Shown piece after piece: positions 3,623 through 16,003 of a DNA stretch of 16,068 nucleotides. A program made the position numbers and the translations under genes. This DNA comes from Candidatus Margulisiibacteriota bacterium. Its GTDB lineage: Bacteria > Margulisbacteria > WOR-1 > O2-12-FULL-45-9. Below the pieces are notes generated by a model. That model saw only the letters and a list, made by a program, of their open reading frames with translations. It made no database searches and was not told where the DNA came from. Position 1 is the first letter of the stretch. Each line of letters opens with the position of its first letter. The DNA is taken from positions 1 through 16,068 of the forward strand of contig JBDRHP010000086.1 in assembly GCA_043816785.1 (NCBI GenBank), read 5' to 3'.

Positions 3623-3745
3623 CGTTTATGAGGGGGAGCCCTTCGACACCTCCGCTACGGCGGATTCGCTCAGGGCTGAGAGCCTCAGGAGAAACTGAGG
3701 GTACCCGTTAAACCTGATCAGGATAATGCCTGCGGAGGGAAAATG
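3623..3745 (+). ncRNA. TPP riboswitch (THI box)
   Basis: GGGGGAGCCC...GGGCTGAGAG...ACCCG..AACCTGATCAGGATAATGCCTGCGGAGGGAA matches the conserved aptamer; extra hairpin CCTCAG-gagaaa-CTGAGG; lies directly before thiG. Confidence 0.95.
3639..3675. repeat. REP-like CCCTTCGAC...GCTCAGGG palindrome forming the riboswitch P3 arm
   Basis: CCCTTCGAC-acc-TCCGC-tacg-GCGGA-ttc-GCTCAGGG; resembles a short dispersed CTTCGAC-n-GCTCAG hairpin repeat I recognise from other bacterial genomes. Confidence 0.45.
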
Positions 3746-4504
3746 TTAAAAATTGCCGATAAAACTTTCAAATCCCGACTTCTTCTAGGTACTGGGAAAT
3801 TTCCCTCAAATCAAGCTTTGCGAGAAAGCTTAGCCGCTGCTGAATGTGAAATTGTCACGGTAGCTTTGCGTCGAATTGATCTGGATTCCCCGCAGGGGAG
3901 TATCTTAGAGGCCATTGATCGGGAAAAATATTTGCTCCTGCCCAATACTTCAGGCGCCAGGACCGCGGAGGAAGCAGTTAGGCTGGCGAGACTGGCAAAA
4001 GCTGGAGGGGCAGGGAACTGGCTCAAGCTGGAAGTCACACCGGAGCCAAATTATCTTTTGCCTGATCCCATTGAAACTCTTAAGGCAGCGGAAATCTTGG
4101 TTAAAGAGGGCTTTGTTGTCCTGCCATACATTAATGCTGATCCTGTTCTAGCCAAAAGGCTGGAGGAAGTTGGAACCGCCACGGTTATGCCGTTAGGTTC
4201 GCCGATTGGCTCTCATCAAGGAATAAGAACCAAAGAAGCGATTGGCATTATTATTGAGCAAGCCAATATTCCCGTGGTGGTGGATGCCGGCCTTGGCGCG
4301 CCTTCGCATGCGGCTCAAGCCATGGAAATGGGAGCGGACGCGGTTTTGGTCAACACAGCGATAGCCATTGCGGCTAACCCGGCTGAGATGGCCAGGGCTT
4401 TTAGATTGGCAGTGCAGGCCGGGCGTATCGCCTTTGAGGTTGGGACAAGATCACCGCAAAAACAAGCAGCTGCCTCAAGCCCTTTAACCGGATTCCTGCG
4501 ATGA
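3743..4504 (+). CDS. thiG: Thiazole synthase
   Basis: [54 protein letters not shown] and VLVNTAIA motifs; downstream of a TPP riboswitch. Confidence 0.97.
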
Positions 4505-5604
4505 GTTTTTCGGATCTCCTGGGAAAAATTGATCTATCAAGGCCAGACAATATAACTCAAGAAGAAGTCCAGGCTGTGCTTAATAAGCAGCGCTTGGATT
4601 TTAATGATTATCTAGTCCTGCTCTCTAAAACTGCTTCGAATATGCTGGAAGATCTGGCGCTCAAATCCCGGGAGCTGACCTTAAAACACTTTGGCAAAAC
4701 CATTCTGCTCTATATCCCTCTTTATCTGAACAATGAATGTGATAACAACTGCGTTTACTGTGGTTTCAGCCAGAAATTATCTGAGAAAAGAAAGTCTCTG
4801 ACGGTTGATGAGGTGTTGGCTGAGGCGGAAATAATTTATCAGAAGGGCTTTCGGCATCTGCTGCTGGTTGCTGGAGAAAAGCGGGACAAAATTACTCTGG
4901 TTTATCTAAAAGAGATTATCTCAATGCTGCATGAAAAATTTGAATCGATCTCTCTAGAGATTTTTCCTCTGGAGCAAGGGGAGTACCAGGAACTTTGCCA
5001 AGCCGGGGCAGATGGGGTGACAATTTACCAGGAGGCTTATAATAGGGAAGTCTATAAGCAGGTCCATCCCTGCGGTCCCAAGTCAGATTATGAATCCCGG
5101 TTGTTGACGCCGGAGCGCGCAGCCCGGGCTGGTTTATATCGGATCAATATCGGGGCCTTGCTGGGATTAGGGCAATGGTTTGAACAAGCTGCCTTGCTTG
5201 GTCTGCACGCGGCTTATCTTAAGAAAACATTCTGGCAAGCACAGATCGCGGTTTCGTTTCCCAGGCTGCAAGGTTCAGCAGCTGGTTTTAAGCCGATCCA
5301 TCCGGTTACTGACCAACAGCTGGTGCGGATGATCTGCGCTTTAAGGATCTTCCAACCAACCTTGGGGCTGGTGCTCTCAACCAGGGAAAGCGGAGCGTTA
5401 AGGGATAATCTGATTCCACTGGGAATAACCCAAATGAGCGCTGAATCAAAGACCAGTCCAGGTGGTTATCTTGACGAAACTAAAGCACAAAAACAATTTG
5501 AGATCGCTGATCAAAGAAGTTTAGCTGAAATTAGCGCTGCGATCAGGCAACGAGGTTATGATCCAGTGATGAAAGACTGGGATAAGGAATACATTAGGGG
5601 ATGA
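4501..5604 (+). CDS. thiH: 2-iminoacetate synthase (radical SAM)
   Basis: [19 protein letters not shown] (CxxxCxxC), [33 protein letters not shown] and [13 protein letters not shown] overlap with thiG. Confidence 0.95.
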
Positions 5605-6248
5605 ACCGAAAAGAGCGTTTAGCCAAATTCAAACAAATTGATCTTTATCCGGTAACAAATGAATCACTGTCAAATGGCCGGAGTAATTTAGATATCCTGC
5701 AAGCAGTTATTGCTGGTGGCGCGAAAATTATTCAGCTGAGAGATAAAAACATTAGCCAGGACGATTTTTTGGAGCTGGCAAAGAAGTTTAGGGAAATTAC
5801 AGCCCAAAGCAAGGTTCTTTTGATCATTAATGACCATTTAGATGTTGCTCTAGAGGTTAAAGCAGATGGAGTGCATTTGGGCCAGAATGATCTGTTGGCT
5901 GCAGCAGCTCGCAAATCCGCGCCGGAGCTCCTGATCGGGGTTTCAACCCACAATGTTGCTGAGGCGGTTAAAGCTGAGCAGGACGGGGCTGATTATGTAA
6001 ATATTGGCCCGATCTTTAAAACCCAAACTAAAGATGTTGAGCCGATCGGACCAGAAAGCATTAAACCAATTGCCGCAAAGATCAAAATCCCCTTTACTGT
6101 TATGGGTGGGATAAATTTTAATAATATTGATATGGTGCTGGCGCAAGGCGCTCGACATGTCGCGGTTATTTCCGCTGTAACGCAGGCTCCAGACATTCAA
6201 CAGGCCGCCAGTCAGTTGATCAAAAAGATAAATAATTTGCGCCTGTAG
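5601..6248 (+). CDS. thiE: Thiamine-phosphate synthase
   Basis: IQLRDK, LIIND, ADGVHLGQND, IGVSTH, DYVNIGPIFKTQTK and MGGIN; ATGA overlap with thiH. Confidence 0.96.
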   Translation: MNRKERLAKFKQIDLYPVTNESLSNGRSNLDILQAVIAGGAKIIQLRDKNISQDDFLELAKKFREITAQSKVLLIINDHLDVALEVKADGVHLGQNDLLAAAARKSAPELLIGVSTHNVAEAVKAEQDGADYVNIGPIFKTQTKDVEPIGPESIKPIAAKIKIPFTVMGGINFNNIDMVLAQGARHVAVISAVTQAPDIQQAASQLIKKINNLRL

Positions 6249-6265
6249 GTTTTTAGCTGTAAAAT
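6237..6265 (+). promoter_or_regulatory. Putative internal sigma70 promoter for the iscS-like operon
   Basis: TTGCGC-N17-TAAAAT, followed by an AGGGAGG SD and ATG 6294. Confidence 0.5.
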
Positions 6266-6293
6266 GAGCCTGATTTTGTCAGGGAGGATAATA

Positions 6294-7472
6294 ATGGCTG
6301 ACGAAGTAAAACGCCAGGTCTATCTAGACCACATGGCTAACACACCGGTTGATCCTCGGGTAATTGAGGCGATCCTGCCTCATTTAAAAAATACTTATGG
6401 CAATCCTTTAAATCTCCATGACTTTGGCCAAAAGACGGCGAAGGCAATAGAAGAGGGGCGACAAAAGGTGGCAGAGCTTATCGGAGCAACTGCCAAAGAA
6501 ATCATTTTTACTTCCTGCGGCTCTGAATCTAATAATTTTGCCATTAAAGGGATTGCCAATGCTAATGAAAAGAAAGGCAAACATATTATTACTTCAGCGA
6601 TTGAGCATTTTTCTGTGCTCCATCCAGTGAAGGAGCTGGAAAAGCAAGGCTTTAAAGTTACTTATTTGCCAGTTGATAAAAATGGTCTGATCGATCCGGA
6701 AGCCGTTGCCAAAGCGATCACGAACGAAACTATCCTGGTTACTTTAACCCAGGCCAGCAATGAGATTGGCGCGATCGAGCCGATCAAGGAAATAGGGGCC
6801 AAGGTCAAAGAAAAAGGCGTTGTCTTTCATGTGGACGCAGTGCAGTCTGCAGGAACGATACCAGTTGATGTTGCCGACCTAAATGTTGATGCGCTGACCT
6901 TATCAGCTAATCAATTCTACGGGCCAACAGGCGTAGCTGCTCTTTATTTAAAAAAGGGGACACGGATTATTCCTTTTATTCTTGGCGGGACTCAGGAAGA
7001 AGGTAAACGGGCAGGAACCCATAACATTGCCGGGATCGTTGGGCTGGGGAAAGCCGCTGAGTTGGCCAAGACGGAGATGAAGGTTCGCGCTGATAAGCTG
7101 GTCCCTTTGCGGGATAAATTGTTAAAGGAATTGCCAAAGAAGATCTCTGATTTTTTTGTGACAGGGCATCCAACCCAGCGGCTGCCAAACCATGCCAGCG
7201 GCTGTGTAAAGTTCATTGAAGGTGAATCAATGTCCATGCTGCTCAATATGGAAGGTATTGCTGTTTCCACCGGCTCAGCCTGCGTTTCCAAGGCTTTAAA
7301 AGCCTCCCATGTGCTTTTGGCGATCGGTGTTAGTCCTGAGAACGTACATGGTTCATTGGTGTTTTCCTTGGGTAAAGATAATTCAGCGGCGGATGTGGAT
7401 TATCTGCTGGAAAAGCTGCCGCCGATCGTCAACCGCCTGCGCGAAATGTCGCCTTTAGGGAAAAGCAAATAG
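6294..7472 (+). CDS. IscS/NifS-family (group I) cysteine desulfurase homologue with a degenerate PLP site
   Basis: YLD, IIFTSCGSESNN, IEH, FHVDAVQ, RAGTHN and STGSAC are present. The S-x-H-K-x-x-G-P-K-G motif reads SANQFYGPTG and RFSLG reads VFSLG. Start ATG 6294 chosen from the GGAGG SD. Confidence 0.9.
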   Translation: MADEVKRQVYLDHMANTPVDPRVIEAILPHLKNTYGNPLNLHDFGQKTAKAIEEGRQKVAELIGATAKEIIFTSCGSESNNFAIKGIANANEKKGKHIITSAIEHFSVLHPVKELEKQGFKVTYLPVDKNGLIDPEAVAKAITNETILVTLTQASNEIGAIEPIKEIGAKVKEKGVVFHVDAVQSAGTIPVDVADLNVDALTLSANQFYGPTGVAALYLKKGTRIIPFILGGTQEEGKRAGTHNIAGIVGLGKAAELAKTEMKVRADKLVPLRDKLLKELPKKISDFFVTGHPTQRLPNHASGCVKFIEGESMSMLLNMEGIAVSTGSACVSKALKASHVLLAIGVSPENVHGSLVFSLGKDNSAADVDYLLEKLPPIVNRLREMSPLGKSK

Positions 7473-7481
7473 GAGTTTGTC

Positions 7482-7952
7482 ATGGAAAAATTTAATATAG
7501 TTGTCTTTTCTGGCGACATGGATAAAGTGCTGGCGGCGTTTATTTTAGCCACAACCGCGGCTTCCATGAACATGGAAGTTAACATGTTCTTTACTTTCTG
7601 GGGGTTAAATGTTTTGCGCAAGAAGAAATTTACCAGCGGCAAGAATATCCTGCAAAAATTGATGAATTGGCTGAACAAAAGCGGGGCCAGCCGGTTACCG
7701 CTATCCAAATTTAACATGTTGGGTGCTGGTCCGGCCATGATGAAGATCATGATGAAACAGGCTAAAGTTCCGAGTATTGAAGAATTTCTTCAGCTCGCAA
7801 AGGGCCTAGGCATAAAAATGGTTGCCTGCACCACCACTTTCAGTTTTATGGGCTTTACGGAAAAAGATTTTATTGATGGCCTCGATTCCTTTGCCGGCGC
7901 GGCGACATTTTTGCAGCTGGTCCGCGAAGGCAAGATCAGTTATTTTATTTGA
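7482..7952 (+). CDS. DsrE2 / DsrE-DsrF-DrsH-like sulfur-transfer protein
   Basis: IVVFSGDMDKVLAAFILATTAA, MFFTFWGL, LPLSKFNMLGAG, conserved Cys in MVACTTT, GAATFL and a terminal FI. Confidence 0.9.
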   Translation: MEKFNIVVFSGDMDKVLAAFILATTAASMNMEVNMFFTFWGLNVLRKKKFTSGKNILQKLMNWLNKSGASRLPLSKFNMLGAGPAMMKIMMKQAKVPSIEEFLQLAKGLGIKMVACTTTFSFMGFTEKDFIDGLDSFAGAATFLQLVREGKISYFI

Positions 7953-8026
7953 TGGAACCTGAGACTAAACGTCTCGGTTCCATCAATCTAGAGAGTGAGG
8001 AGCCGAGAAGTTCATTCTCAGGCTCC
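7949..8026. repeat. Pair of related 28-bp palindromes in inverted orientation (REP doublet-like)
   Basis: 7954-7981 is GGAACCTGAGAC-TAAAC-GTCTCGGTTCC; the reverse complement of 7999-8026 is GGAGCCTGAGAA-TGAAC-TTCTCGGCTCC; 23/28 identical. Confidence 0.75.
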
Positions 8027-8048
8027 GAACGAAAAAGGAGGAGAATTT

Positions 8049-8282
8049 ATGAAAGCAGATGAGACTTTGGATTGTTTTGGGCTGCTGTGCCCCATGCCGA
8101 TAGTTAAGACAGCGGAGAAGATCAAGGCCATGAGAGTCGGCCAGGTGCTGGAAGTTGACGCGACTGATGTGGGGATCAAATCTGATATGCCGGCCTGGTG
8201 TAAGGCAACGGGGCAGGAGTACCTGGGGATCGAGGAAAAAGCCGCGGAATATAAAGTTTACGTGAAGAAGGTAAGGCAATGA
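8049..8282 (+). CDS. tusA: TusA family sulfur carrier
   Basis: MKADETLDCFGLLCPMP (CPxP), GQVLEVDATD and DMPAWC; 77 aa from ATG 8049 with an AGGAGG SD. Confidence 0.92.
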   Translation: MKADETLDCFGLLCPMPIVKTAEKIKAMRVGQVLEVDATDVGIKSDMPAWCKATGQEYLGIEEKAAEYKVYVKKVRQ

Positions 8283-9022
8283 CCTGGATATACACGTTAA
8301 CAGCGGTATTTATCGTCAGCCTGGTTTCGTTCATCGGGATTCTGACGATTGCGCTTAAGATGGAAGTCTTAAAAAAGATTGTCATGTTCCTGGTGAGTTT
8401 ATCAGCCGGAGCATTGTTGGGCGGGGCTTTCTTCCATCTTATCCCTGAAGCTGCGGAGGAATTCGGCTTTACTTTAAGATTGGGCGTTTTTATTCTTTCC
8501 GGGATACTGGTTTTCTTTGCCCTGGAAAAAATAATCTGCTGGCGCCACTGCCACATCCCGACCTCAAAGGACCATCCCCATCCAGTTGCTATTATGAACC
8601 TGATCGGCGACGCTTTTCACAATTTGATCGACGGCGCGATCATTGCGGCTTCATTTCTGGTCAGCTTCCCGCTAGGCGTCAGCACGACAGTGGCGGTGTT
8701 GCTCCATGAGATCCCGCAGGAGATCGGAGATTTTGGGGTTTTGGTCCATGGTGGTTTTGGCCGCTTCAAAGCGTTGCTGCTAAACTTTGCTTCAGCCCTG
8801 ACCTCGGTGCTTGGCGCGGTCCTGGTGTTATCCCTGAACGTCAAGGTTGAGACCATTGCCTGGTTCCTGGTGCCATTTACCGCGGGCGGATTTATCTACA
8901 TTGCCGGGTCTGACCTGATCCCTGAAATGAAAAAGGACATTGTTCCGCTTAATTCTTTAATTCAGATGTTCTTTCTGCTGTTAGGGCTGGCCATCATGCT
9001 GGCGCTGGTTGTTTTTGGATAG
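8279..9022 (+). CDS. ZIP family metal (Zn/Fe) transporter
   Basis: LSAGALLGGAFFHLIPEA, His-rich loop WRHCH..HPH, DAFHNLIDG, LHEIPQEIGDFG and GGFIYIAGSDLIPE. Confidence 0.93.
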   Translation: MTWIYTLTAVFIVSLVSFIGILTIALKMEVLKKIVMFLVSLSAGALLGGAFFHLIPEAAEEFGFTLRLGVFILSGILVFFALEKIICWRHCHIPTSKDHPHPVAIMNLIGDAFHNLIDGAIIAASFLVSFPLGVSTTVAVLLHEIPQEIGDFGVLVHGGFGRFKALLLNFASALTSVLGAVLVLSLNVKVETIAWFLVPFTAGGFIYIAGSDLIPEMKKDIVPLNSLIQMFFLLLGLAIMLALVVFG

Positions 9023-11622: not shown

Positions 11623-11660
11623 TTGACAAACTTCTTAAATAGGTATAATTTGTACCTATT
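11623..11660 (+). promoter_or_regulatory. rrf2 promoter with a palindromic operator
   Basis: TTGACA at 11623-11628 and TATAAT at 11644-11649 (short 15-nt spacer; TAATTT at 17 nt is an alternative). Perfect inverted repeat AATAGGTA-N7-TACCTATT at 11638-11660 abuts the ATG. Confidence 0.7.
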
Positions 11661-12062
11661 ATGCAGATAACAAGAGCCTCTGATTACGCGATCCGCCTGT
11701 TGGCCCATCTGGCAGCCGGGGAGGTGGAGACGACAAGCCAAACCTTATCAAATGAACTTGGCGTGCCTTTGAACCATTTGGCTAAACTGGTCCAGAATCT
11801 GGCCCGGCGCGGCTATTTGATCACCCGCAAGGGCAAGGGCGGCGGCTTACGTTTGGCTGTTGACCCTAAAAAGATCAATCTGGCTCAGGTAATTGAGGCA
11901 ATTGAAGGCCCGATCATGATCAATAAATGTCTTTTTCACAGTCAAAGCTGCCGCTTCAGCAGAAAGTGTAAAGTCAGGAAATGTTTGGGCGGAGTGCAGG
12001 GCAAGATCCAGGAAATGCTGGCCAGCACAACTATTTTTGACATGGCGCTTCAATATAGCTAA
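11661..12062 (+). CDS. Rrf2 family transcriptional regulator, likely Fe-S binding
   Basis: MQITRASDYAIR, HLAKLVQNL, RKGKGGGLRLA, INLAQVIEAIEG; C-x6-C-x5-C cluster. Confidence 0.95.
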   Translation: MQITRASDYAIRLLAHLAAGEVETTSQTLSNELGVPLNHLAKLVQNLARRGYLITRKGKGGGLRLAVDPKKINLAQVIEAIEGPIMINKCLFHSQSCRFSRKCKVRKCLGGVQGKIQEMLASTTIFDMALQYS

Positions 12063-12078
12063 GAAAGGGGGTGAATTT

Positions 12079-12375
12079 ATGATACTCGAAGAATTAAATG
12101 TCTTTTTGGAGAATAATCCACAAGTAGAATGGGCCCAGGATGATGACGGCACTCTATATCTTAGACACTCGGTCTTTGATAAGGAGCACGAAAAGATCAA
12201 GATTGAACCCGGGGCGCTAGCCAATCTAACTTCGGAAAAGCTGGAGCAGGTATTGATCGGCGGCCGCAACGTTGAGCACATTACCCGCGTCACTGGTTAT
12301 TTCTCAAGGATCTCTGGTTGGAATAAAGGCAAGAAGGGAGAATTAGCAGATAGACATCGAATGAATATTTTGTAA
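12079..12375 (+). CDS. Small protein carrying the class III ribonucleotide reductase (NrdD) C-terminal glycyl-radical motif
   Basis: 98 aa from ATG 12079 (GGGGGTG SD); ends VEHITRVTGYFSRISGWNKGKKGELADRHR, the NrdD RxxGY...WNxGKxxExxDR signature. Confidence 0.85.
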   Translation: MILEELNVFLENNPQVEWAQDDDGTLYLRHSVFDKEHEKIKIEPGALANLTSEKLEQVLIGGRNVEHITRVTGYFSRISGWNKGKKGELADRHRMNIL

Positions 12376-12416: not shown

Positions 12417-13319
12417 ATGAAGGACTTAATTATTATCGGAGCTGGTCCAGCGGGCATAACCGCTGCGGTCTACGCTGCCAGAAAAAAGCTGGATTTCGCA
12501 GTTATCTCCAGGGATATTGGCGGTCAAACTGCCTGGTCGCTGGAAGTTGAGAATTACACGGGCTATCAATTCATTCCCGGGCCTGAACTGGCCATGAAGT
12601 TCCGCGAGCATTTGGAAAAGTTTGATTTTGAGTTGCGCGAGGGCGAGAGCGTAAAAACAATCGAGAAAACCGGCCAAATCTTTAAAGTCACTACCACTAA
12701 GGGAGATGTTCTCGAAAGCAAGGCAGTTATTGTTGCCACGGGCAAGCGGCCGAAATTACTCGGCGTGCCGGGCGAAGGAAAGTTTAAGGGCAAAGGCCTG
12801 ACCTATTGTGCCACCTGCGACGGCCCGCTTTTTACCGGAAAAAACGTCGCAGTGATCGGCGGCGGCAATTCCGGGCTGGATGCCACCATGCAGCTGATGC
12901 GGCTGGCAAAAAAAGTTTATCTGATCAATAGCGTGGATAAGCTTACCGGTGATCCAATTATGCAGGAGAGGATCGCTCAGGCTGTAAATGTCGAGGTCAT
13001 AAATTCAGCCAAAGTCCTGCAAATATCCGGCGAGCAATTTGTTAAGGCGCTCAAGGTTGAGATTAATGGCCAGGAACGGGACCTGCCGGTCGAAGGCATT
13101 TTTGTGGAAATAGGGCTGGTGCCAAATTCAAAATTCGTTGACCTGGCGGAGAAGAACGAGCGCGGGGAGATCGTTGTTAACGCCGCAGCAGAAACTTCTG
13201 TTGAAGGACTCTTTGCCGCAGGCGATGTTACCAATGTTCCTGAAAAACAGATCATTGTAGCAGGTGGGGAAGGGGCCAAGGCGACCTTGACGGCTTTTAA
13301 ATATCTTTCTACCCATTAA
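12417..13319 (+). CDS. trxB: Thioredoxin reductase / AhpF C-terminal-like FAD disulfide reductase
   Basis: IIGAGPAG, VENYTG, IVATG, redox motif CATCDG, VIGGGNSG, GLFAAGD and KQIIVAGGEGAKA. Confidence 0.9.
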   Translation: MKDLIIIGAGPAGITAAVYAARKKLDFAVISRDIGGQTAWSLEVENYTGYQFIPGPELAMKFREHLEKFDFELREGESVKTIEKTGQIFKVTTTKGDVLESKAVIVATGKRPKLLGVPGEGKFKGKGLTYCATCDGPLFTGKNVAVIGGGNSGLDATMQLMRLAKKVYLINSVDKLTGDPIMQERIAQAVNVEVINSAKVLQISGEQFVKALKVEINGQERDLPVEGIFVEIGLVPNSKFVDLAEKNERGEIVVNAAAETSVEGLFAAGDVTNVPEKQIIVAGGEGAKATLTAFKYLSTH

Positions 13320-13331
13320 AGGATTTTGATC

Positions 13332-14207
13332 ATGCCCAAAGTTGATGAACAAACACAAAATATTGTAAAAATATTTCAGCGCAATGAGATAACCGAGTAT
13401 TTTATCTACGAAAAACTGGCATCCTTGGAAAAGGATCAGAACAATAAAGAGGTTTTGTTAAGAATTTCTCTAGATGAGCTGCGGCATTATGGTGTTTGGA
13501 AAGTTTATAGTGGCGGAGATGTTGCTCCTAGCCGTTTTAAGATCTGGTGGTATGTGTCCATTGCCAGAATTTTTGGCGTAACTTTTGGGATAAAATTGAT
13601 GGAATCAGGAGAAGAGGGGGCCCAAGCTGCTTATGGCGAAATTGCGAAAGTGATCCCTGAGGCGGACAGTATCAAAAACGATGAAAACCAGCATGAAAAT
13701 GAACTGATCGCCATGATCGATGAGGAAAGATTGAAATATATTGGTTCAGTGGTCCTGGGGTTAAACGACGCACTAGTTGAGCTGACGGGAACTCTGGCAG
13801 GCTTAACCTTTGCTTTGCAAAATGCCAAGTTAGTCGGGGTTGCGGGTTTGATCACAGGGATTGCTGCTTCGCTTTCTATGGCAGCCTCAGAATATCTTTC
13901 AACCAAGGTGGAGGAAGGGGAGAAGAACCCGCTTAAAGCTTCTTTTTATACTGGCACGGCTTATGTATTAGCGGTTACAGTCTTGATCTTGCCGTTCTTA
14001 TTATTGGGCAATCCTTTTATCTCATTAGGCCTGGCGTTGACCAGCGCCATCCTTTTGATCCTGGTCTTTACTTTTTACTTTTCGGTTGTTAGAGGAGTTT
14101 CGTTTAAGAAGCGTTTTACGGAAATGGTCGTTATAAGCCTGGGAGTAGCTGGCCTAAGTTTTATTATCGGCCTGGCGGTCAGGCAATTTTTGGGAATAGA
14201 TATTTAG
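13332..14207 (+). CDS. Ferritin-like/rubrerythrin domain fused to a VIT1/CCC1 transporter (MbfA-like architecture)
   Basis: N-terminal NE..Y, DELRH and DENQHE di-iron-type motifs; C-terminal VLGLNDALVE and ASLSMAASEYLS plus about five TM segments. Confidence 0.9.
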   Translation: MPKVDEQTQNIVKIFQRNEITEYFIYEKLASLEKDQNNKEVLLRISLDELRHYGVWKVYSGGDVAPSRFKIWWYVSIARIFGVTFGIKLMESGEEGAQAAYGEIAKVIPEADSIKNDENQHENELIAMIDEERLKYIGSVVLGLNDALVELTGTLAGLTFALQNAKLVGVAGLITGIAASLSMAASEYLSTKVEEGEKNPLKASFYTGTAYVLAVTVLILPFLLLGNPFISLGLALTSAILLILVFTFYFSVVRGVSFKKRFTEMVVISLGVAGLSFIIGLAVRQFLGIDI

Positions 14208-14734
14208 CCTTCAACGATCCAGCGTTCTTCTTTTTTAAACCAGTCGCCGGGATTGTTTAAGTATTGTAAGGTATCTTCCAGGATATCATAATGTTCCCTT
14301 TCTTCCTGGGCCAGGGCAGCGTAGAATTTTTTAGTGGTTTCATCACTGTTTTCTTTGGATATTGTGTCGTAGAGGTTGTAGCTGTCACGCTCCAGGCCTT
14401 CAGCAACTACATAAGCCTTGTTAATATCGGACGGGGTCTTGAATTTCATGTTCAGATCGTTTTTGAGTTTCAGGAGGATCGGTCTCAGCAATTCTTCTTT
14501 CTTGGGCGGGATGGCAACGCCTTTGAGCCAGTCGCTTTTTAGTTTGCTTTCGCCGGTTAAATTCTTATAAAACTCGGTTATTTTAGCTAAATGCTCGGCC
14601 TCTCTGTCAGCTAAGCTTAACAGGGTAGCCTGGGCCAGGGGGTTGCTGGTTTTTGCGGCAGACCCGGAATAGAAGTCGTAACCATTTTTCTCCAGTTCGA
14701 TCGCCAGCTTGGTGTCCGCAATAAGATTGTTCAT
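14204..14734 (-). CDS. Ferritin-like (rubrerythrin-domain) protein
   Basis: Two repeats of AxxLE..Y..Y...LAxxExxH (AIELEKNGYDFY..LADREAEH; AEGLERDSYNLY..LAQEEREH). Start ATG 14734 with a GGAGG SD. Confidence 0.9.
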   Translation of the reverse strand: MNNLIADTKLAIELEKNGYDFYSGSAAKTSNPLAQATLLSLADREAEHLAKITEFYKNLTGESKLKSDWLKGVAIPPKKEELLRPILLKLKNDLNMKFKTPSDINKAYVVAEGLERDSYNLYDTISKENSDETTKKFYAALAQEEREHYDILEDTLQYLNNPGDWFKKEERWIVEG

Positions 14735-14753
14735 TTTGTGCACCTCCAGCTGG

Positions 14754-14822
14754 ATTTTAGCAAGGTAAGGGGAAATAGGCAAGGTGGAACAAGTTGAGCA
14801 ATGATAATGGATGGTGTAAGAT
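14754..14822. promoter_or_regulatory. Divergent sigma70 promoters for the ferritin-like gene and the dfx operon
   Basis: Minus strand: TTGCCT-N17-TAAAAT with extended TG (14782-14754). Plus strand: TTGAGC-N17-TAAGAT (14794-14822). Confidence 0.5.
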
Positions 14823-14849: not shown

Positions 14850-15239
14850 ATGGTAAATGTAGGACAGCAGTTAGAAGTTTATAAATGCGGGGTTTGTGGC
14901 AATATTGTTGAGGTTGTCCATGTTGGTGGCGGGGAACTGGTTTGTTGTGACCAGCCGATGATATTGCAGAAGGAAAACACCGTTGACGCGGCAAAAGAGA
15001 AGCATGTCCCGGTTATTGAAAAGAACGATAAGGGGATTTTGGTTAAGGTCGGAACTGTGGCTCATCCCATGGAAGATAAACATTATATTGAATGGATAGA
15101 AGTTATTTCTGACGGCAGGTCCTGTAGAAAGTTCCTTAAACCAGGCCAGAAGCCTGAAGCCCATTTTGGCGCGAAATCAGCGGATATCATCGTTAGGGCA
15201 TACTGCAATCTCCACGGGTTATGGATGGTCAAGGCTTAA
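14850..15239 (+). CDS. dfx: Desulfoferrodoxin (2Fe superoxide reductase)
   Basis: [24 protein letters not shown] desulforedoxin domain; [17 protein letters not shown] and AYCNLHGLW. Confidence 0.96.
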
Positions 15240-15244
15240 ATGTT

Positions 15245-15409
15245 ATGAATCAAAAGTATGAATGTCTAATTTGCGGTTATATTTATGATCCGGAGAAAGG
15301 GGATCCTGATTCTGGTGTTGCACCAGGAATGGCTTTTGAGGCAATTCCTGACACCTGGGTCTGTCCGATCTGCGGGGCGGCTAAGGACCAGTTTGAAAAG
15401 GTGGGCTAA
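15245..15409 (+). CDS. Rubredoxin
   Basis: [41 protein letters not shown]; 54 aa from ATG 15245. Confidence 0.96.
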
Positions 15410-15424
15410 GGAAAGGAGAAAACA

Positions 15425-16003
15425 ATGGTAAAAAGTTTAAAGGGATCTAAAACAGAGAAAAATCTTCTGGCGTCTTTTGCCGGGGAGTCCCAGGCCAGGA
15501 ACCGCTACACCTATTTTGCCAGCGTGGCTAAGAAAGCCGGCTATGAACAGATAGCGGCGATCTTTTTGGAGACAGCGGAGAATGAGAAGGAGCATGCTAA
15601 GCGCTTTTTCAATTTACTGGAGGGTGGGGATGTTGCAATAACCGCTTCTTATCCAGCCGGGGTGGTCGGCACGACTGAAGAAAATCTTCTTGAAGCAGCC
15701 AATGGCGAAAAGCTGGAGTGGTCCAAGCTCTATCTGGATGCGGAAAATGCTGCGCGGGAGGAGGGGTTTGAAGAGATCGCTGTCCAATTCAAGGAGATCG
15801 CTGAGGTTGAGGAAGAGCATGAGAAAAGATATCGTAAGCTCCTGCAAAATTTGAAGGAAAAAACTGTTTTCAAAAAGGATAAGGTTGTTAAATGGAAGTG
15901 CCGCAATTGCGGTTATGTGCACGAAGGCAAGGAAGCTCCGGATAAGTGTCCGGCCTGTGACCACCCAACGGCATATTACGAGCTGTTAGCTGAAAATTAC
16001 TAA
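15425..16003 (+). CDS. rbr: Rubrerythrin
   Basis: LKGSKTEKNLLASFAGESQARNRYTYFA, NEKEHAK, GEKLE and EEEHEKRY; C-terminal WKCRNCGY...CPACDHP. Confidence 0.97.
   Translation: MVKSLKGSKTEKNLLASFAGESQARNRYTYFASVAKKAGYEQIAAIFLETAENEKEHAKRFFNLLEGGDVAITASYPAGVVGTTEENLLEAANGEKLEWSKLYLDAENAAREEGFEEIAVQFKEIAEVEEEHEKRYRKLLQNLKEKTVFKKDKVVKWKCRNCGYVHEGKEAPDKCPACDHPTAYYELLAENY

Follow-up and report, generated by a model that had tools for sequence, protein, structure and literature searches.

The stretch of DNA analysed here, the 16,068-nt contig JBDRHP010000086.1 of a Candidatus Margulisiibacteriota bacterium of the WOR-1 class (assembly GCA_043816785.1), is referred to below as the window. On its forward strand it carries a small gene (12079..12375) for a stand-alone protein of 98 residues, P0001, which resembles the glycyl-radical tail of NrdD, which is ribonucleotide reductase (RNR) of class III. 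An earlier note on this DNA, made from the sequence alone, had drawn attention to this open reading frame (ORF), and its description of the gene was largely borne out. The ORF has its own Shine-Dalgarno (SD)-like sequence, AAGGGGGTGA at 12065..12074 on the same strand, begins 16 nt behind the stop codon of an rrf2 gene, and encodes no Cys at all. The motif R70-V-T-G73-Y74 (RVTGY) lies at 12286-12300, with the codon of Gly73 at 12295-12297. Residues 64-93 correspond to the last 30 positions of the Pfam family NRDD (PF13597; 29.7 bits, cut-off 26.2) and align as well to the tail of the P. copri NrdD 8p23, where Gly73-Tyr74 coincide with Gly711-Tyr712 if an offset of 4 in the numbering is assumed (PMC11226230). 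PF13597 is the sole match above cut-off, and the domain PF01228 of the pyruvate formate-lyase (PFL) type is not matched. Compared with either NrdD tail of the genome to which the contig belongs (the home genome), the loop shows 71% identity.

The barrel, the ATP-cone, the finger-loop Cys and the Zn ribbon of NrdD are all absent from P0001 (29 bits against the full-length profile TIGR02487, cut-off 326), so that the protein cannot be catalytic alone. The lack of a barrel had been noted before; the "unrelated acidic segment" that was thought to make up the rest of the protein is instead a conserved domain that is predicted to be folded. Residues 1-60 (12079..12258, forward strand) form in the AlphaFold2 model a compact, family-specific domain of one helix, three strands and two helices (pLDDT 83-91), followed by a radical loop that is predicted to be disordered. 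In the alignment of homologues the loop and the helix after it, G62...TRVTG73YFS...WNKGK..EL..R92, span 12262..12354 on the same strand. Foldseek with the N-domain model returned no solved domain at E<=0.001, and the best VIA-align hit (Z 5.4, root-mean-square deviation 2.6, 58 aligned residues) gave nothing clear as a fold search. In the Atlas, whole P0001 retrieved only NRDD-labelled clusters of 93-102 residues, many of them viral (0.93-0.94), and residues 1-61 alone scored below 0.8. A single RNA run contained 10% of the words; its contigs do not reach rrf2 or the small gene, and it is uninformative on expression.

The gene upstream, rrf2 (11661..12062, forward strand), encodes a 133-residue regulator of the Rrf2 family (PF02082, 101 bits; TIGR00738 above cut-off). 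It scores below the cut-offs of the equivalogs IscR (50 vs 208) and NsrR (62 vs 182) and is placed at the level of the Rrf2 superfamily. The three Cys reported earlier (Cys90, Cys97 and Cys103) are indeed conserved; a fourth, variable one (Cys108) had been overlooked. The regulator would carry an Fe-S cluster. The palindromic operator proposed in front of rrf2 was recovered as AATAGGTA-N7-TACCTATT (11638..11660), which covers the -10 region, abuts the rrf2 ATG, is the best palindrome of the upstream intergenic stretch and recurs in relatives; in one of these (L025) both arms have changed together. With a matrix built from nine relatives the site scores 33.4 and the next site in the genome 17.2. 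Rrf2 is a candidate for binding this palindrome. The runner-up (G000:C11:114477) lies 226 nt upstream of a 435-residue ORF, the start of which we take to resemble HypC. In the home genome no strong site precedes nrdD, nrdG or the desulfoferrodoxin-rubredoxin-rubrerythrin genes (dfx-rd-rbr), so that no wider regulon is shown. A -35-like TTGACA (11623..11628, forward strand) stands before rrf2 here and in 13 of the 14 relatives printed, followed by TATAAT at a spacing of 15 nt and TAATTT at 17 nt; at the promoter that these would form a consensus promoter scanner, the counts of which were near shuffle levels, made no call. As the ATG directly follows the operator without an SD sequence (11638-11663), here and in most of the relatives printed, a leaderless rrf2 transcript is suggested.

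Downstream of the small gene the forward strand encodes a thioredoxin reductase (TrxR)/AhpF-like flavoprotein (12417..13319; Pyr_redox_2 154 bits, TRX_reduct 295 bits, below its cut-off of 343) and a VIT1-family membrane protein (13326..14207; PF01988, 47 bits). These are followed by desulfoferrodoxin, a superoxide reductase (14850..15239; TIGR00320, 200 bits), rubredoxin (15221..15409; NF045768, 100 bits) and rubrerythrin (15425..16003; NF045767, 298 bits), each above cut-off. Pfam and NCBIfam thus confirm the neighbours named in the earlier note, but the cluster is interrupted by a ferritin/rubrerythrin-like gene on the minus strand (14204..14782; PF02915, 45 bits). Because of this gene, and because no operator site precedes dfx-rd-rbr, the likely operon is rrf2-small gene-trxR-vit. 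As stated before, neither nrdD nor nrdG is found in the window.

Homologues of P0001 number 174, nearly all of them 97-99 residues long and, where named, mostly from Margulisiibacteriota, WOR-1 or Saganbacteria; a broader profile gave 1101 matches of 51-221 residues, not all of which were inspected. In 53 aligned close homologues 15 loop residues and G62 are invariant, and 12 of these remain so in 42 sequences from six lineage groups. Invariance extends past the radical loop, to W81, N82, G84, K85, E88, L89 and R92. A seven-residue loop suffices for the PFL-activating enzyme (PFL-AE; PMC10665898), and the additional conserved residues therefore suggest docking on the barrel of NrdD. Among the WOR-1 small genes only 2 of 378 pairs have a usable synonymous distance (ratio of nonsynonymous to synonymous substitution, dN/dS, 0.19), the others being saturated, and the proteins stay more than 50% identical despite this saturation; the Eisenbacteria-like genes have a median dN/dS of 0.21 (165 of 210 pairs usable). 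The family is under purifying selection, and the homologues of about 100 residues that the earlier note proposed to collect have kept their length.

The N-domain links the lineages as well. When profiles of this domain alone were compared, WOR-1 matched the Eisenbacteria-like and the Edwardsbacteria sequences at 92% each, above 30 column shuffles in both cases, and four phage proteins at 97%. Through those intermediate groups the N-domains reach Omnitrophota and Thermoplasmata (89-99%), by which six lineage groups are connected. No long protein with the N-domain was found among 7995 candidates, the 32 long matches all being confined to the loop (34-48% coverage), which is weak evidence. The tree of the small proteins, from which L132, L144, L021 and L058 (masked bases) were left out, has too few columns for the direction of transfer.

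The home genome encodes complete class III enzymes elsewhere; the earlier note had proposed to look for a full-length nrdD with its own RxxGY and an nrdG. Contig C5 carries nrdR followed by two tandem full-length nrdD genes (G000:C5:34225-38938, equal to L001:6226-10939, minus strand), the products of which are 703 and 711 residues long and 67% identical. Each has SECCR, two CxxC and its own RITGY, and ends in ...WNKGK. The gene nrdG is found on contig C1 (nrdG2 profile, 194 bits, above cut-off). No class I/II RNR, monomeric class II RNR or glycyl-radical enzyme (GRE) of the PFL type (PF01228) was found in this genome, which is 86.75% complete; all genomes used here are metagenome-assembled (MAGs) or single-amplified genomes, and the absence of other RNRs is to be read as "not found". 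Class III is the only RNR seen in the home genome, and the small protein is an extra there. Since both NrdDs have loops of their own, P0001 is not an obligate split subunit in this organism. The finger loop E-C-C-R has two Cys and no Met, as in the type known from N. bacilliformis, which uses thioredoxin (Burnim et al., bioRxiv 2022.04.23.489257); from this we infer that the NrdD pair would use a thioredoxin-type reductant, and the neighbouring TrxR may feed it. Across WOR-1 the two tandem copies form separate clades, with longer branches in one of them, and in L123 (G005:C34) two tandem nrdD genes lie in one reading frame, for which the genome search gave an open frame of 1427 residues and translation a single stop between the two.

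Within the WOR-1 class the small gene is accessory. It was found in 31 of 55 genomes; of the other 24, 13 have the NrdD tail only (including a single-contig genome that is 95% complete), 2 have only an unrelated type of 50 residues and 9 have no match. The gene is thus present in 31 of the 44 genomes that have this NrdD type or the gene, and in none of the 11 class genomes without this NrdD tail. Outside the class, a full-length match was obtained in none of 66 genomes. The NrdD loop is intact in all 20 genomes of the WOR-1 group for which tails were read.

The fetched flanks of 25 of the 28 WOR-1 small-gene loci contain an Rrf2 gene (1.8% at random points of the home genome), which lies directly upstream of the small gene in the 15 WOR-1 loci measured. 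Genes for desulfoferrodoxin, rubredoxin, rubrerythrin, Hcp or flavodiiron proteins occur at 14 of the 28 loci (random points, 0.5%). Gene order varies among these loci, and TrxR is present in only six. The small gene adjoins nrdD in none of the 28; counts of nrdD as a neighbour were dropped, since the NrdD tail is matched by the small protein as well. In the archaea four of six loci adjoin genes for Fur-family, rubredoxin and flavodiiron proteins, and NrdD is intact in five of these six genomes. In two Omnitrophota one copy follows a truncated nrdD and another follows rrf2-hcp. The small protein is also encoded at 9 of 20 viral loci, with no nrdD or nrdG in the fetched flanks. Two phage copies (L128 and L134) adjoin portal or terminase genes, not genes of nucleotide metabolism, and the viral NrdDs of L135-L140 have, behind the Gly loop, a CxxC-containing extension that is presumably glutaredoxin-like.

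The strongest indication of what the family does comes from relatives in which NrdD has lost its own loop. Tails were read in 50 genomes with the small gene, which cover 50 of the 64 loci intended, and in a class-wide sample; archaeal RVTGF loops were counted as intact, and the first NrdD of L124, with a frameshift in the core, was left out. This gave 27 loop-dead NrdDs, from Eisenbacteria-like genomes, Omnitrophota/Ratteibacteria and Edwardsbacteria, with three kinds of lesion: Gly-to-Asp, a stop within the loop, and truncation near the site of the oxygen cut. A homologue of the small gene is carried by 26 of the 27 genomes, close behind nrdD in Omnitrophota/Ratteibacteria and Edwardsbacteria and unlinked to it in the Eisenbacteria-like class. 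In the class-wide sample of 25 it was found in 14 of 15 loop-dead genomes, in 7 of 8 with an intact loop and in both genomes in which nrdD was not found. In the order of G039 all six nrdD genes are truncated; five of these genomes have the small gene and the sixth ends at a contig edge. The Eisenbacteria-like genomes form a series of decay: eight have an intact loop, two have Gly-to-Asp in a loop of full length (L098 and L145), in others a stop is followed downstream by a recognisable remnant of the loop (L096, L152, L153 and L088), and in the last ones the protein ends cleanly at the Gly position.

Apart from the loop these enzymes are preserved. Both CxxC are kept in all 27, the xG[IVL] strand is in register in 23, and 13 end 11-13 residues past the last Cys, where the oxygen cut would leave 12. 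The catalytic motifs are whole in 18 of the 20 checked and the other two have long insertions there (L059:2176-5799 and L076:2216-5848): these NrdDs are about 1210 residues long, with some 400 residues inserted at the YCSG motif, which we take to be inteins. The cores have a median dN/dS of 0.12 (60 of 66 pairs usable). A search of 20 loop-dead genomes gave nrdG in 19, and the twentieth has it in two pieces. A class I/II RNR was found in 1 of these 20, and the monomeric class II profile had a match in 1 of 25, which is the same gene. In quick trees of the NrdD core (44 rows) the state of the loop changes at least six times, and a single clade of loop-dead rows is rejected (approximately unbiased test, p-AU 4e-5; 0.008 within the Eisenbacteria-like class). 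The loop was lost several times independently; that the direction is one of loss follows from the loop remnants and not from the tree. Readthrough of the in-loop stops was rejected, as the sequence ahead of the stop no longer contains the Gly motif, and so was sequencing error, as the same lesions recur in sister genomes.

Repeated loss of the loop, with the core under selection and with nrdG and the small gene kept, is read most simply as supply of the radical Gly in trans, and we consider it very likely that the small-protein family does this. Omnitrophota, Edwardsbacteria and many Eisenbacteria-like genomes appear to have an NrdD in two pieces, with the homologue as its obligate small subunit. 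In genomes with an intact NrdD the gene is mostly located in a stress cluster, which supports a role in repair. It is our favoured, if moderately confident, reading that P0001 is a stress-induced replacement radical subunit, which would dock into a class III RNR that has been cut by oxygen and restore its activity.

The mechanism that we propose builds on PFL. Oxygen cuts PFL at the radical Gly, after which YfiD (GrcA) binds the cut enzyme, for which it needs the duplicated strand that is left on PFL; the first 60 residues of YfiD are used in binding, and activation occurs only in the complex (PMC8683613). Oxygen cuts NrdD likewise (PMC12288474), and the radical domain of NrdD is mobile (PMC11226230, PMC12662201). 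In the home organism, Rrf2 on the palindrome would release rrf2-small gene-trxR-vit once its cluster is damaged by oxygen or nitric oxide (NO). By analogy to PFL, oxygen would cut the activated NrdDs at their radical residue, Gly674 in one copy and Gly686 in the other, and the cut enzyme would retain the barrel, the SECCR finger loop, the Zn ribbon and the I-E-G-I strand. P0001 would bind this remnant, probably through its N-domain and the retained strand, as the loop-dead relatives and the example of YfiD suggest. Back in anoxia NrdG would install the radical on Gly73, probably within the P0001-NrdD complex since NrdD keeps its Zn ribbon; from Gly73 the radical would pass to the finger-loop Cys. 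Having such a spare part may then have made the loop of NrdD dispensable, so that several lineages lost it and came to have two-piece enzymes. Slightly less firmly, we expect P0001 to found a family of spare parts for class III RNR, the first outside PFL: stress-induced where NrdD is whole, carried by phages, and repeatedly turned into the sole carrier of the radical as decay of the NrdD loop came to reproduce the oxygen-cut enzyme genetically, giving two-piece RNRs.

Several observations weigh against this interpretation. The WOR-1 loci are kin, so that 25 of 28 does not amount to 25 independent observations. The rrf2 and oxidative-stress neighbours that the earlier note anticipated recur in WOR-1 but are found at none of 21 Eisenbacteria-like loci, including those of genomes with an intact NrdD; likewise stress genes occur at none of four Edwardsbacteria loci and none of nine phage loci, and are missing from two of the six archaeal ones. 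The small gene itself led to 22 of the 27 loop-dead genomes, all of them incomplete, so that the co-occurrence in these 22 is by selection, and in the loop-dead genome G059, an incomplete MAG, three queries found no small gene. The direct comparison of the WOR-1 N-domain with that of Omnitrophota or of the archaea is not significant (10-12%). Finally, NO destroys the radical of PFL without cutting the chain (bioRxiv 10.1101/2025.02.23.639758), so that the frequent presence of hcp nearby need not mean repair of cleavage. The idea of an RNR spare part, as put forward in the earlier note, is partly supported. It agrees with the genome, in which no refuting finding was made, and is backed by the loop-dead relatives as regards action in trans; but the link to stress is not family-wide, and other lineages appear to use the protein as an obligate subunit.

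The role of NO leads to the alternative that survives best, although we still think it unlikely: P0001 could act as a trans radical subunit on uncut NrdD, either displacing a loop that is damaged or has not been activated, for example after NO, or providing a second, separately regulated activation. The NrdDs of L098 and L145 keep a full-length loop with Gly-to-Asp, so that a partner must there displace an uncut loop, and Hcp is a frequent neighbour. Kammel and Sawers reportedly found in 2022 that GrcA restores full-length inactive PFL. Besides removing the PFL radical without cleavage, NO also inhibits class III RNR (bioRxiv 2025.02.23.639758). Yet superoxide reductase, rubrerythrin, rubredoxin and flavodiiron neighbours indicate oxygen as well, and of the 27 natural truncations 13 stop no more than one residue away from the oxygen cut. 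This alternative is not exclusive of repair of the cut enzyme.

A role as decoy or brake, in which P0001 would occupy NrdG (or NrdD) under stress and NrdD would stay unactivated and uncut, is improbable. It would account for the stress co-location and for a loop that is predicted to be disordered and exposed, and short loop peptides are substrates of PFL-AE (PMC10665898); it fails to explain why the small gene and nrdG are kept where the only RNR has no Gly of its own, and why residues past the loop are invariant. A lineage-specific switch to such a role may have taken place in WOR-1. We give still less credit to the idea that NrdD is not the target in WOR-1, with the loop serving another radical partner or the N-domain having a sensing or binding role of its own: the fold searches with the N-domain gave no clear match and the small gene is next to nrdD at none of the 28 WOR-1 loci, but no PFL-type GRE was found in the home genome, loop and NrdD tails share 71% identity, and the gene was found in none of the 11 class genomes without this tail. 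Marginally less credible again is that P0001 is an obligate small subunit of the home NrdD pair, with the covalent loops unused and the place behind rrf2 incidental, as its homologues appear to be in Omnitrophota, Edwardsbacteria and many Eisenbacteria-like genomes; RITGY is present in both home NrdDs, loops are intact in all 20 WOR-1-group genomes read, and the small gene is missing from 13 of 44 genomes, the single-contig one among them. That the ORF is a remnant of an nrdD in decay or is there by chance, as the shortness and the automatic label "NrdD fragment" in databases might suggest, is ruled out for practical purposes by the constant length of 174 homologues, by dN/dS of about 0.2 where measurable and by the protein's own N-domain.

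The spare-part kind of protein is known from PFL. A June 2026 review (PMC13450708) names formate lyases as the sole GREs for which spare parts are known and leaves the others undetermined. Full-text literature searches, which did not extend to subscription papers, theses and supplements, gave no description of an NrdD spare part or of a split class III NrdD; annotations in RNR databases may mention split nrdD. Like GrcA/YfiD of E. coli, P0001 is small and free-standing, repeats the radical loop from the C-terminus of a GRE together with the strand left after the oxygen cut, has some 60 additional N-terminal residues, and coexists with a parent enzyme that has its own loop. It has some of the marks of an autonomous cofactor: a small protein with an invariant Gly loop and no barrel, in a genome with parent NrdD loops and NrdG. 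The phage-borne copies of the family (nine viral loci) have a parallel in Y06I of phage T4, which is said to be an autonomous glycyl-radical cofactor for PFL. P0001 differs in that its loop is of the NrdD type (PF13597) and not PF01228, so that the partner would be RNR and NrdG, and in that relatives have lost the covalent loop. Moreover, its N-terminal part is predicted to be folded whereas that of YfiD is disordered, and a putative Rrf2 operator stands ahead of its gene, YfiD being described as constitutive (PMC8683613). By analogy P0001 would work like GrcA/YfiD; it is not a member of that family, as there is no PF01228 match and no PFL was found in the home genome. With single-chain NrdD activated by NrdG (P. 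copri 8p23, T4, T. maritima) it shares the R-x-T-G-Y loop and the W-N-x-G-K-x-x-E-L-x-x-R helix, without the barrel, ATP-cone, finger-loop Cys and Zn ribbon. NrdJa/NrdJb of Pseudomonas aeruginosa likewise has a C-terminal part of an RNR on a separate chain (bioRxiv 2022.04.23.489257), but that enzyme is class II and B12-dependent, and the separate chain is the reducing Cys/Zn-finger part, has no glycyl radical, and is obligate rather than spare.

If the proposed reading is correct, strict anaerobes that have only class III RNR would protect the synthesis of DNA precursors by exchanging 10 kDa instead of 80 kDa, and in the two-piece RNRs oxygen would destroy only a consumable subunit of 10 kDa. 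The glycyl radical of an RNR could then work on a separate chain, many annotations of "truncated nrdD" or "NrdD fragment" would stand for functional two-piece enzymes, and the decay series would show clearly how a part for repair turned into an essential subunit. The question of spare parts beyond PFL can be tested directly with truncated NrdD, NrdG and the 98-residue protein, and the natural loop-dead NrdDs, which are expected to be inactive without their partner, are built-in test cases.

A second, unrelated split type was observed in L159-L163 (genomes G149, G179, G159 for L161, G064 and G089). There the nrdD belongs to another clade and has no Gly loop at its end; behind it, or in overlap with it, is encoded a peptide of 48-76 residues with the motif C-x-x-x-T-E-V-Y-S-R-V-V-G-Y/F, which may also carry a Zn ligand. 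In the Eisenbacteria-like loci L032-L047 and L065 the small gene is preceded by a conserved gene of about 550 codons without a Pfam match, and the nrdD genes of this group have a separate small CxxC ORF next downstream. In the window itself a further gene cluster lies at 3743-9022, which, judging from motifs, we take to resemble thiG-thiH-thiE-cysteine desulfurase-DsrE-TusA-ZIP transporter; ThiG is also encoded near the small gene in L014, L027 and L029.

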